A stretch of 64,000 nucleotides of DNA from Octopus vulgaris. Its lineage: Eukaryota. Numbering within the stretch: position 1 is the stretch's first letter; every line of letters starts with the position of its first letter. Below the pieces are notes generated by a model. The model was not told the DNA's origin. It worked only from the letters and a program-made list of their open reading frames with translations, and did no database searches. The stretch spans positions 157,666,001-157,730,000 of the forward strand of contig OX597815.1 of the NCBI GenBank assembly GCA_951406725.2, given 5' to 3'. A program made the translations under genes and the position numbers. Shown here piece after piece: positions 30,082-55,469 of this stretch.

Positions 30082-30120
30082 GTATTTGATAAGATGCGAT
30101 ACATCGAAACCAGTAATATC
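30082..30120 (+). ncRNA. Candidate minimal hammerhead ribozyme, U3:A8 variant
   Basis: gtat-TTGATAA-GATG-cgata-CATC-GAAAC-ca-GTA-atat; stem I is weak. Confidence 0.45.
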
Positions 30121-30380
30121 TTCTTTATATAATTTTTTAATAATGTTTTATTATATTCCCTCTTAAATTGAAATGTCTTAGACTTTCCACTATTTCCACT
30201 TCCATCTTTTATATATAAAAATTTGATTTGTATAAATACATATATGTATTCCTTTATTCTTTTATTTGTTTCCGTCATTTGACTGCTGCCATGCTGGAGC
30301 ACGTCAAAAAAATTTAGGAATTTCCAAAATACATTAAACAATTATTTTTGAAGCTGATAAATCTATAGATGATAGCGTAA

Positions 30381-30696
30381 TGCATACATACATACATACA
30401 TACATACATACATACATACATACATACATACATACATACATACATATATACATACATACATGCATACATACATACATGCATGCATGCATACATACATACA
30501 TACATACACACACACATATATACATACATACATGAATACATACATACATACATACATACATGCAAGCATACATACATGCATACATGCATACATACACACA
30601 TACACACATACATATATACATACATACATGCATGCATACATACATACATACATACATACATACATACATACATACATACATACATACATACATACA
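30381..30696. repeat. (TACA)n microsatellite
   Basis: Directly visible; it generates several spurious ORFs. Confidence 0.95.
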
Positions 30697-30779
30697 TGAG
30701 TTTGTATGTATCAAAGGAAAAGGAAACCAAACCCAAGGCTGGACGAGTATCTCAGGTCATTTAGAATATCTAATTAGAG

Positions 30780-51545: not shown

Positions 51546-52556
51546 ATTTCAAATTTTGGTACACGGCCAGCAATTTTGGAGTTCGAGGTAAGTCGATGGC
51601 ATCGATCTCGGTACGCAACTAGTATTTATTTCATCGATTACCAGCGGGATAGTAGACGAAGTTGATCCCAGCGATATTTAGACTGAAAACATATAGAGCC
51701 GCAACATAAACTGCAAAGCATTTTTCCTGAAGCTCTAATTATTCTGCTAATTCAATAACACACACGCGCGCGCACACGCACGCAGCATACGCATACACAC
51801 ACTCACACACACGCTTGTGTATGTTTGATTATGTATGAGTTGATGCGTATATAGAGGGTACAAGCACGACCGAGTGGTTACGAAATTCTCTTGACAATGT
51901 TTTGAGCTTCAACCTCGCCACCCGCTGTCTTTTACCATAGCATCGAATGGAATCAAACCGTGCGGATGGAATTTGAGTAGACAAAAACTGTGTGGAAGCT
52001 TACAGGGTCGACTGTAGGGACAATATAGTCACATATTGTGTCATTCAAAATCCTATCAGAAGATTACGGTCAGGGTACGCATGTCCGTCTACAGCTCACC
52101 ATCTTAAACTGTAACTGAATGTGTTAGTAGTGCAGCTGGCTGAAAAATTGGAACAATCATCGTTTAAAGCGACGGAGGATATACTTACATTTAATCACTT
52201 GTATAAAGACACGTATAAAAAGGAGATATTATTTTTGAAACTGACTTTAATTAAGCAATCGTCTCGTTATTACGAGTAAAGAGATGTATAAAAAGGAGAT
52301 ATTGTTTAAACTGTGACTATAATTAAGCAATCGTCTCGTTATTACAAGTAAAGCGATTAAAACAATTGCAGTTTAGATTGTAGATTTTCCTTCTTGATTT
52401 TTTCCTCCAATATATTTTGAATGATATCTTGGCAGATACACAAGTCATATTATTGAATAACTGCTCAATAATAATTGGTTGTAAATACAAGGAAATTAGA
52501 TTAAAATTTAGCGACATACTTTGTAAACCCTGATTTTATTAGTCACTCGCTGCCGC

Positions 52557-53080
52557 TTATTGAACATTTCCAGCATCTTCTGGCGTTGACAACATAATCC
52601 TGCGTATCTCCGACAATACTTCAATCATATCGTTGATTTTGGATACAATCATATTTTCCATCTTTAATTGTTCCTGTGTATTATTGTCAAATTTCATGTT
52701 CAGTTTGCGAACACCGCGTAATGTGGAATTTAGCTTTGCTTCATGACTCTCTCTGGCTACTTTGTCGGCGAGCTCAGCATCAAGGGCACCTTCCTTTCTT
52801 AAGATCTCACTAGCTCGCTCTATCAAGATATTTTTAGCTTCTGGGTAAGTTTCTAGAGCTGCGAGCAAATCAGTTTTGCATAAACTGAATAAATCTGTGA
52901 AGCCGATACTGCGCACAGTAGCCGTCCTTCTGTTACCATATTTATTTCCAGGAATTGTTAGAACACTGAGGTCTCCAAAAGACTCACCTTCACCAAATTC
53001 TTTGAACACTACTGATAAATCTTCAGACAAGACTTGAAGTTTCCCAGATTTTACGATGTACATTTCTCTTCCTATGTCAC
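52557..53080 (-). CDS. CNGA: CNG channel alpha-type subunit, terminal exon (cyclic-nucleotide-binding domain, C-terminus)
   Basis: ttccag acceptor; GDIGREMYIVKSGKLQV...GESFGDLSVL..GNRRTATVRSIGFTDLFSLCKTDL..AL.TYPEAK..L. Confidence 0.95.
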
Positions 53081-54721
53081 CTGGAATATAAGAAAAGAAA
53101 AATAACCATCACCACTCAGTATTACCTACAATTATCATCACCTTCATCACCACTACACCACCACCATCACCACCAATACCACCATCATTTCATCCAGCAT
53201 CACTGGCACCACCACCGCCGCCGCTGACGATATGTGCTAAATATTCTGCCAGCTCACAGATAATAATAATAATAATAATAATAATAATAATAATAATAAT
53301 AATAATAATAATAATAATAATAATAATAATAATAATAATAATAATAATAATAATAATAATAATAATAATGATAATAATAATAATAATAATAATAATAATA
53401 GATGCAGTATCAGGTACTGGGTCTCGTGGCGTCTGATCTTGATTGGACGTGTTATCATGTACATTGTTTTGTCTTGCCATAAAAGATGGGCTACAGAAAA
53501 TATTCTGCTCAATACGACAGATTTGCTTACCAGTTGTTTGACCATAACCAGTTAAGCATGTTCCTTCGTGGCTGACGATATTTGCATCTTTGATCACGAG
53601 CAGAAGTAGCGGGGGAGCATCATAACCATGTGTTGCGAGGAATTCTTTGGGGCTTGGATTATTCAGCTTTAGAAACATGGGTGTTTCGTTCAACATCCTT
53701 AAACCCTTATTCAGGGACCATTTGAGTGGGATGGGCTACTCGACCTGAAGAAAATTCTGACTCGTGCATATTGCTGTAATGCATGTGCATGGTGTATCCT
53801 TATCAGACGGGTAGTCATGATGGGCATACTGGGCTTCGTACCCCAGTGTTACTTTGATGGCATGCACTGCTATCTCACTCACTCAGTGATGATGACGATG
53901 ATGATGATGATGATGATGATAATGATGATGATGATGATGATGATGATGACAACAATAACGATAATAATAATAATAATAATAATAATAATAATAATAATAA
54001 TAATAATAATAATAATAATAATAATAATAATAAAACTAAATTCTGTAAAGCAATCCGAAGAAAGTACTGGTTGAAACAAAAAGGATATAGGGCAGTAATG
54101 GAAAAATTAAGGATAGGAACGAGCGCTGCCAAGATCAAGAGATATACGAGCAGAATTGTACAGTTTAGACAAAATAAGTTTCTCGAAACAGATCAAAGTA
54201 GATTTCACAAGGATCAAATTGAAGTTGTTATAGTAAATGTACTACTTAGCAAGGAATAGACAAAGGAATTCTTGAGAAACATTTGGAGCTACGAAGAAAA
54301 ACCTAATGCTGATGCAGAACGGTCAAAAAGAGATAAAGGTCTACTAAAACAGAGGAAGATAAAGATCACAGAAGAAAAGTTTTAAAATGTCTTGAAAGGG
54401 ATGCCAAACTGGAAATCTCCTGGGCCAAATTTGATGCGGTGATTTTGACTAAAACGTTTCACTGCGCTTCATGGTAGAATGGGAACACAACTAAATAATT
54501 GTATTGAGACAAGAGATACTTCTGAATGGATGACGAAATGTATAACGGTTCTGATATTGAAAGACCAGAAGAAAGGAAATTTAGCAAGCAACTGCCGACC
54601 TATAACTTTATAACTTGCCTTCCACTGATGTAGAAGTTGTTAACAGATGTTATTGCAAATTATATATATATATATATATATATATATATATATATATATA
54701 TATATATATATATATATATAT

Positions 54722-55469
54722 AAATTATTAGAGAATTATCCACTATGTGGACAACTCTAGTGCTAAAAATAGCTCCGAAGCAACCACAGAAGATCCGTTT
54801 CCAACTAGAATCAACACACATCTAACTGAAGGAAAGTGAAATACAACGAATAAAATAGATTGACTCTATACAATTGTTTCATTACTAATGCAATATGTAG
54901 TTTTACTTACACTTGCATCCATAAATCTTCGGTAGAGTTTGTCAGAAATGCAATTAATTAGATCGATTCGGGCGTCAAAAACACGAGCGGTCCAACCAAT
55001 TACATTTTTAGTTATGTCTCAAATTCCGCGCCAAAAGCATGCCTAGACTCCATTGGAAACGTATGCCGCATCAAATAAAATATTAACTGCCGCATGGTTA
55101 AATTTATAAAATTATAAATGAGGGTGAAAAATCGATATTAATTTAATAATACCGTCATAATAATACCGTGTAAGTAAAACTACATATTGCATTAGTAATG
55201 AAACAATTGTATAGAGTCAATCTATTTTATTCGTTGTATTTCACTTTCCTTCAGTTAGATGTGTGTTGATTCTAGTTGGAAACGGATCTTCTGAGGTTGC
55301 TTCGGAGCTATTTTTAGCACTAGAGTTGTCCACATAGTGGATAACTCTCTAATAATTTATGTATAAATTTGTATTTTCTCCGTAGTATTTTGTGCTAAGC
55401 CACTTGGTGTTAAATTGACGGTATTATTAAATTAATATCGATTTTTCACCCTCATTTATAATTTTATAT
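54722..55469. mobile_element. Foldback element in (TA)n with nested inverted repeats (PLE-terminal-repeat-like)
   Basis: 191-bp IR (54722-54912 / 55168-55358, 2 mismatches by eye) plus ~53-bp IR (55105-55157 / 55416-55469). TA microsatellites on both sides. Confidence 0.85.
54863..54938 (-). ncRNA. Type-I minimal hammerhead ribozyme, U4C core variant
   Basis: Minus strand: actcta-CCGAAGA-tttatggatgcaa..ttgcattagtaat-GAAAC-aatt-GTA-tagagt; perfect 6-bp stem I. Confidence 0.7.

Follow-up and report, generated by a model that had tools for sequence, protein, structure and literature searches.

The 64-kb stretch of the Octopus vulgaris genome analysed here (contig OX597815.1, positions 157,666,001 to 157,730,000, hereafter the window) contains seven sites resembling hammerhead ribozymes. 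These sites are most probably independent insertions of six genome-wide families, named here A to F, three of which (A, B, and E) would be truncated 3' ends of Penelope-like elements (PLEs), and the other three (C, D, and F) non-coding units likely copied by Penelope-type enzymes, with their single copies predicted to be nearly silent. A preliminary description of this DNA had counted six or seven motifs within 25 kb. As judged from their sequence, six of the sites are type I hammerhead motifs, five of them matching a structural descriptor and that of family E keeping its core across the family, and the seventh site (42675) retains no more than a broken fragment. Every one of these six motifs is a member of a dispersed repeat family, and the several unrelated families announced in the same description were indeed found.

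The type I descriptor, which was composed with the window sites already known, required a Watson-Crick 3:8 pair, U or C at position 4, a stem II, GAAA, a closed stem III of 2-6 nt, an NUH triplet, and a stem I of at least 3 bp. In the window it gave exactly 5 matches (the hammerheads of families A to D and F in Table 1), compared with 0.45 ± 0.71 in 100 local dinucleotide shuffles, none of which (0/100) gave 5. Since the descriptor had been fitted after seeing the sites, it was applied to 40 arbitrary 10-kb stretches of the genome (2.8 Gb, 36% GC, microsatellite-rich), and these 400 kb gave 22 matches, compared with 2.7 on average for 10 shuffles. Motif counts stand well above those of shuffled sequence in both samples, and the genome total extrapolated from this one 400-kb sample would be, roughly, 0.8-2.1 x 10^5 motifs. 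The type I core (paired 3:8, G5, A6, A9, G12, A13, A14, A15.1-U16.1, H17, and three stems) is present in families A to D and F. The core of family E is also present, but its stem I is short and mismatched (2 bp, a G.A mismatch, and 2 bp), which, along with a stem III of AUAU, explains why the descriptor missed it. The site at 42675, described before as a decayed relative of the motif at 30816, is precisely that, since its core is broken, the 3' strand of stem I is missing, and what remains is related to family B; it does not qualify as a type I hammerhead. The minimal type I architecture proposed for the sites holds, but not the palindromic stem III in every case: the window copies at 30082 (A) and 37454 (D) have the non-palindromic ACCAGU, and many other copies have ACCGGU. 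An Rfam scan of the window resulted in 55 matches at E≤1, none of them a hammerhead.

The copies of families C, D, F, and B terminate at either of two fixed 3' positions, both of which are represented, one per arm, in two-armed insertions. Among 32 F insertions, 47 of the 50 outer ends lie at unit position ~163 or ~263. Of the 16 two-armed insertions, 14 have one short and one long end; likewise, 15 of 16 two-armed C insertions show one of each 3' end (unit positions ~150 and ~208). The ends lie at ~359 and ~430 in family D, and at ~222 and ~360-390 in family B, and the two-ended PLE pattern with an inverted arm was also seen, uncounted, in family E. The resulting tails measure ~58 nt in C, ~70 in D, ~100 in F, and ~140-165 in B. 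According to Craig et al. 2021 (PMC8557442), PLE insertions have an inverted 5'-truncated arm and a tail at one end, and Frangieh et al. 2024 (PMC11167929) report that this tail arises from two internal starts of the reverse transcriptase (RT) after the nicking of AT-rich DNA. Families C, D, and F carry this PLE-specific two-start tail and inverted arm, and are thus likely mobilised by PLE enzymes. The foldback, which had been taken for the form of the element itself, was dismissed as part of its anatomy: the inner junctions differ from copy to copy, many copies are single-armed, and one arm carries the tail, matching PLE insertion (PMC8557442), so that the foldback would be made upon insertion. 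The proposed association with (TA)n was borne out, many copies being foldbacks in (TA)n.

Families A, B, and E are recognised as the 3' ends of 5'-truncated protein-coding PLEs, with GIY-YIG remnants upstream of all three. For family A, the GIY-YIG end was reached upstream in 2 of 30 loci (L160 and L180). In the case of family B, a decayed gene comprising the RT end and the GIY-YIG domain, overlooked in the preliminary description, lies inside the window. Among 24 other loci, which were picked by the intervening sequence, 15 have the endonuclease linked to hammerhead B on the same strand. In locus L019, a GIY-YIG domain lies 650 nt downstream of a B copy, but it was rejected as a part of B, being that of a separate PLE family, which has an A3:U8 motif itself. 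In family E, the end of an open reading frame (ORF), "..EALLINKLKPSIN", is placed ~150 nt upstream in 4 of 8 inspected loci (L098, L101, L108, and L109), and we take its last 15-25 codons to be the end of a PLE endonuclease. PLE remnants number in the thousands in this genome (16283 and 6261 first-look candidates), and a PDB sequence search with a PLE frame gave 0 matches. The connection to PLEs suggested earlier is therefore supported for these three families by coding remnants, and for the other three by their PLE-type ends.

Family C is a non-coding unit of ~208 nt, consisting of ~150 nt plus the tail, with 4693 exact matches to its 3' 30-mer and 1719 to its core 32-mer (two-armed insertions counted twice). 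Its 5' end is fixed, as one limit, ~24 nt before the core, is shared by 17 of 26 insertions that had been selected through their 3' part; the unit is not circularly permuted, and tandem or direct redundancy was found in 0/30 loci. The inner junctions of this family recur to some extent, with inverted arms stopping at unit position 16 in 5/16, and several 5' ends falling at positions 66-70, where stem I has its 3' base and the cleavage site (60/61) has just been passed; a fossil of cleavage and the stalling of the RT at stem I explain these ends equally well. In 12 of the 30 loci picked by the 3' 30-mer (L239, L244-L246, L250, L251, L255-L257, L259, L261, and L265), the C foldback was captured by a larger repeat, at least 1.9 kb long, together with which it has been amplified. 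In L258 (406-1530), a C fragment lies directly behind a PLE RT/endonuclease frame broken inside the endonuclease, a contact that may derive from an insertion or a template switch, and that could be a lead to the partner PLE of this family.

Family D is probably a unit of the non-LTR (LTR, long terminal repeat) retrozyme type. It is ~430 nt long, non-coding, and circularly permuted, and in 12 of 30 loci its copies extend beyond one unit, with no full dimer among those loci. Family F, also circularly permuted, is classed as a young, tandem unit of the same type: it has a 493-nt period, its best copies are 97-99% alike, and its core has 143 exact matches. Its head-to-tail arrays contain up to six hammerheads, one per unit, without an ORF between them; the longest stop-free frame has 53 codons, and the folding z-score is -5.5. 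Within arrays, units differ at 1.5 positions (16 pairs, 5 arrays), and between arrays at 13.9 (75 pairs, minimum 1), as expected if each insertion is repeatedly read from one template. The 5' ends of F do not pile up at the cleavage site. In 3 of 4 sequencing runs, presumed to be RNA, contigs connect the end of the 493-nt unit with its start, two of the records being 523 nt long (493 + 30). A circle would give this joint, but so do genomic arrays, and no sequencing run containing family F is recorded as RNA. A second deep contig (L049:1516-1545, run X1) shares the stem I and the U4C core of F and diverges inside stem II, perhaps representing a sister retrozyme.

The cores of these hammerheads are diverse. 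Half of the matches in the arbitrary stretches (11/22) deviate from CUGANGA, with 7 U3:A8, 3 U4C, and 1 G3:C8, and variants are also family-wide, in agreement with the claim that searches for CUGANGA miss them. In the aligned arms, scored for the best 40 of 427-2098 candidate copies per site, the family core is kept in 30/40 arms of A (UUGAUAA), 23/38 of B, 32/36 of C (GUGAACA), 29/30 of D, 29/34 of E, and 11/14 distinct arms of F (CCGAAGA), identical F arms having been merged before counting. Covariation within families was not used, because copies decay neutrally, and pairing across families was tested in its place. With positions 3, 4, 7, and 8 unconstrained and strict stems, the 3:8 pair is Watson-Crick in 9/9 motif types from random DNA and in 19/21 from targeted loci. 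A further abundant PLE family, with RT and GIY-YIG, was seen in 30 loci (L181-L210), of which 18 have a hammerhead with an A3:U8 core and a stem II of 2 bp (e.g. L191 at ~2126 in ORF orientation; 19 pattern rows, from which an unrelated one was removed); with the cores of the other families, it completes all four Watson-Crick pairs at 3:8. Cores with U4C were met repeatedly, both in PLE subfamilies related to B and elsewhere (L129, L197, L385, L395, L264, L339, L349, and L358). U4C is common in the genome, and some CUG cores may be CpG-decayed CCG.

In the mechanism proposed here, which takes PLE insertion as reported in PMC11167929 for its model, both 3' ends would be internal start sites of the PLE RT, primed at nicked AT-rich DNA, and two such primings would lead to the foldback. 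The template of F and D would be a circular or multimeric RNA read beyond unit length, and tandem F transcripts would self-cleave as dimers, by means of their palindromic stem III, into monomers and circles. Most of the inserted templates would be uncleaved at the ribozyme, and single genomic copies, such as those in the window, would decay neutrally. A bolder form of this proposal, which we judge to fall a little short of an even chance, would have F as a still-moving circular-RNA U4C retrozyme, copied from two internal starts by a Penelope-type enzyme that rolls round the circle, and C as a ~208-nt mini-Penelope, similar to short interspersed nuclear elements (SINEs), with a working G3:C8 core; all four 3:8 pairs would occur in ~1e5 motifs, and the insertions would directly prove, at the genomic level, the mobilisation of animal retrozymes by PLEs.

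Several observations weigh against a PLE-driven origin of the non-coding units and their activity. The two-end rule is broken in 2 of the 16 two-armed F insertions and in 1 of the 16 C ones. The stem III of family C self-pairs very weakly (-0.2 kcal/mol) and, given its UUU triplet as well, this family may never cleave. Copying from a tandem parent transcript, or a local duplication, would also account for the homogeneity of the F arrays, and one pair of units from different arrays differs at a single position. Sequence of C, D, or F is absent from all 83 loci anchored on PLE proteins, leaving these families with no partner PLE among them; pLTR (pseudo-LTR) homology between F or D and a partner PLE was not found; and the sampling, 30-60 of hundreds to thousands of C, D, and F copies, leaves room for a rare coding parent. 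Such a parent is what would be needed if all six families were merely 5'-truncated 3' repeats of autonomous PLEs, with the coding parents of C, D, and F unsampled. This origin holds for A, B, and E, the C fragment of L258 sits where it would predict, and the scoring covers the best 40 candidates per search. However, F and D followed upstream re-enter their own downstream sequence, leaving no room for an ORF, none being present either in the F arrays of up to six units, and C stops at its common 5' base in loci that, as far as inspected, share nothing beyond it except the one composite repeat. Moreover, no RT or GIY-YIG was found upstream on the same strand of C, D, or F in the loci inspected, L258 being the one exception. 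We thus regard this explanation as distinctly improbable, and continue to favour non-coding units copied by Penelope-type enzymes for C, D, and F.

Less probable still, and largely refuted, is the explanation closest to the preliminary description, according to which the window hosts a local cluster of one non-autonomous system of ribozyme-bearing foldbacks, the hairpin being part of the element. It has in its favour the many foldbacks in (TA)n, and the position of all 5 descriptor matches within 25 of the 64 kb: for 5 points within at most 24.9 kb P=0.078, for 6 sites 0.036, and for 7 hand-picked sites 0.016. However, the background density predicts 3.5 motifs per 64 kb (P(≥5)=0.28), so that a count of 5 is ordinary; the window motifs are real, the local excess is mild at most, and the cluster was dismissed. 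As for the single non-autonomous system, C, D, and F are indeed non-coding, but A, B, and E have coding parents, and the variable junctions and frequent single arms speak against a built-in hairpin. Another explanation concerns activity alone, and is compatible with the origin favoured here: the variant cores (G3:C8, U4C, and A3:U8) would be dead relics kept as protein-binding or packaging structures rather than as catalysts. In PMC11167929, PLE insertion in vitro needs no hammerhead cleavage, hammerhead mutants still insert, the main template is uncleaved RNA, and the RNA sequencing reported there showed no cleaved ends; in the experiments reported by Li, Clavereau & Pollet 2026 (10.64898/2026.07.22.740005), cleavage was not seen for 8 of 9 Xenopus dimers; U4C reduces activity (PMC3088659); and the full-length C copies derive from uncleaved RNA. 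Against it, the 3:8 pair, G5, A6, A9, GAAA, NUH, and the palindromic stem III persist in families unrelated to one another, as catalysis by dimers requires, and the PLE hammerhead, which requires protein, partly regains cleavage in its presence with C3G/G8C (PMC11167929). We consider that the variants are unlikely to be mere relics, even though this is the most serious of the three alternatives.

The features of the window are collected in Table 1. Of the sites, that at 54863 alone lies inside the gene of a cyclic-nucleotide-gated (CNG) channel at 52557-62133(-), with Ion_trans, cNMP_binding, and CLZ exons, including those at about 58558-57605 and 53108-52557 (-). The F insertion occupies an intron, with its hammerhead and main arm on the sense strand, and has no second complete copy. 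A relaxed search found no hammerhead core in the foldbacks at 10900-11114, 38956-40067, and 40561-40993; the first contains a near-perfect 92-nt foldback adjoining (TA)n, and is perhaps a PLE-type insertion truncated short of its ribozyme. Remnants of non-LTR retrotransposon-like or mariner-type elements are located at 29446-29850(+), 53858-54259(+), 55700-56200(+), 63297-63725(+), and 28281-28721(-). That at 63297 matches PF01359 (mariner-type transposase), and the non-LTR likeness, for which there is no Pfam match, is our assumption.

Table 1. Hammerhead motifs and the insertions carrying them, in window coordinates.
Feature	Position	Strand	Description
Family A minimal hammerhead	30082..30119	+	U3:A8 core UUGAUAA; stem III decayed in window copy
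Family A putative PLE 3'-end stub	~30015-30240		Encloses hammerhead 30082
Family B hammerhead	30816..30893	-	Canonical core; stem II long, stem III (ACAGCUGU) palindromic; located in 3' repeat of decayed PLE
Family B PLE, 5'-truncated, frameshifted	30711..32991	-	Carries hammerhead B and 3' untranslated region
Family B PLE parts	RT C-terminal ~32991-32484; simple-repeat interruption; GIY-YIG ~31860-31462	-	PF01541 E=0.003, below cut-off
Family C hammerhead	34996..35046	+	G3:C8 core GUGAACA; stem II preceded by an extra G; stem III AAUAUU; UUU triplet
Family C insertion	34880..35125	.	Inverted arm with tail ~34880-34975; main arm 34980-35125(+)
Family D hammerhead	37458..37522	-	Canonical core; stem III decayed in window copy
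Family D insertion	37246..37833	.	More-than-unit copy 37736-37246(-) and inverted arm 37737-37833(+)
Decayed B-related fragment	42675..42728	+	Core broken, no 3' stem I, ends in (TA)n; incomplete motif
Family E minimal hammerhead	49617..49656	+	CUGAAGA plus extra A, stem III AUAU
Family E putative two-armed PLE 3'-end stub	~49471-49775		Encloses hammerhead 49617
Family F hammerhead	54863..54938	-	U4C core CCGAAGA, U.U at stem II base, palindromic stem III ACAAUUGU, 6-bp stem I
Family F insertion in (TA)n	54706..55474	.	Main arm 55157-54706(-) to unit position 163; inverted arm 55168-55474(+) to 263, without core

The closest known relatives of these motifs are the minimal type I hammerheads of metazoan PLEs, with 2,000-9,000 per genome, described by Cervera & De la Peña 2014 (PMC4209133). 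Both share the type I layout, the tiny palindromic stem III, the extra base between 9 and 10.1, the short form of stem I, the U3:A8 variant, the thousands of solo copies in many families, and the opposite-strand pairs 100-700 bp apart, and the hammerheads of A, B, and E are likewise placed after RT/GIY-YIG. What differs is that G3:C8 (C), A3:U8 (the further PLE family), and U4C (F and several others) are family-wide here, and that the estimate of 0.8-2.1 x 10^5 motifs exceeds the range given there. Natural U3:A8, a tolerated U10.1-U11.1 mismatch, and U4C in a viroid have been reported (PMC3088659). The variants named in the preliminary description are all present family-wide, but U3:A8 and U4C had already been published (PMC4209133, PMC3088659). 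A literature search found no natural G3:C8 or A3:U8 families, which further surveys of PLEs and hammerheads, and their supplements, may list. The insertions themselves resemble those of PLEs (PMC8557442, PMC11167929) in their 5' truncation, their inverted 5'-truncated arm, their tail at one end only, and their (TA)n or AT-rich targets, and differ from them in the length of the tails, ~58 to ~140-165 nt instead of 30-40 bp, and in their presence on non-coding units as well.

Animal non-LTR retrozymes, of which a coral has more than 6000 hammerheads in 16 families, have been described with PLEs as their candidate mobilisers (Cervera & De la Peña 2020, PMC7229834), and this mobilisation has been argued from co-occurrence and repeat similarity (10.64898/2026.07.22.740005). 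Family F, and probably D, resembles them in that its units are non-coding, low in GC, highly self-paired, and arranged in tandem, each bearing a single type I hammerhead. Unlike them, F has a U4C core, F and D bear the PLE two-start tail and inverted arm, and both are known here from genomic DNA. Family C, in turn, is short, non-coding, and dispersed, and has a fixed 5' end, as do the schistosome hammerhead SINE-like elements (reviewed in PMC6765202), from which it differs by its PLE-type ends and its G3:C8 core ~24 nt from the 5' end; no promoter was recognised in C. A limited literature search found no report of these families, of octopus or cephalopod hammerheads matching them, or of the tail signature on retrozymes. 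The link between PLEs and hammerheads, PLE hammerheads, U3:A8, U4C, and retrozymes were already known, and what is added here is modest, if of use: a PLE-only insertion mark on non-coding hammerhead units, among which one family is young and arranged in tandem, together with G3:C8 and A3:U8 cores in high copy number, and motifs at a very high density. With the PLE-only tail on non-coding units, start sites mapped to a few bases, and a young family F, the question of what mobilises animal non-LTR retrozymes becomes testable, and the high-copy natural G3:C8, A3:U8, U3:A8, and U4C cores supplied by this genome allow one to ask which role of PLE hammerheads is favoured by selection.

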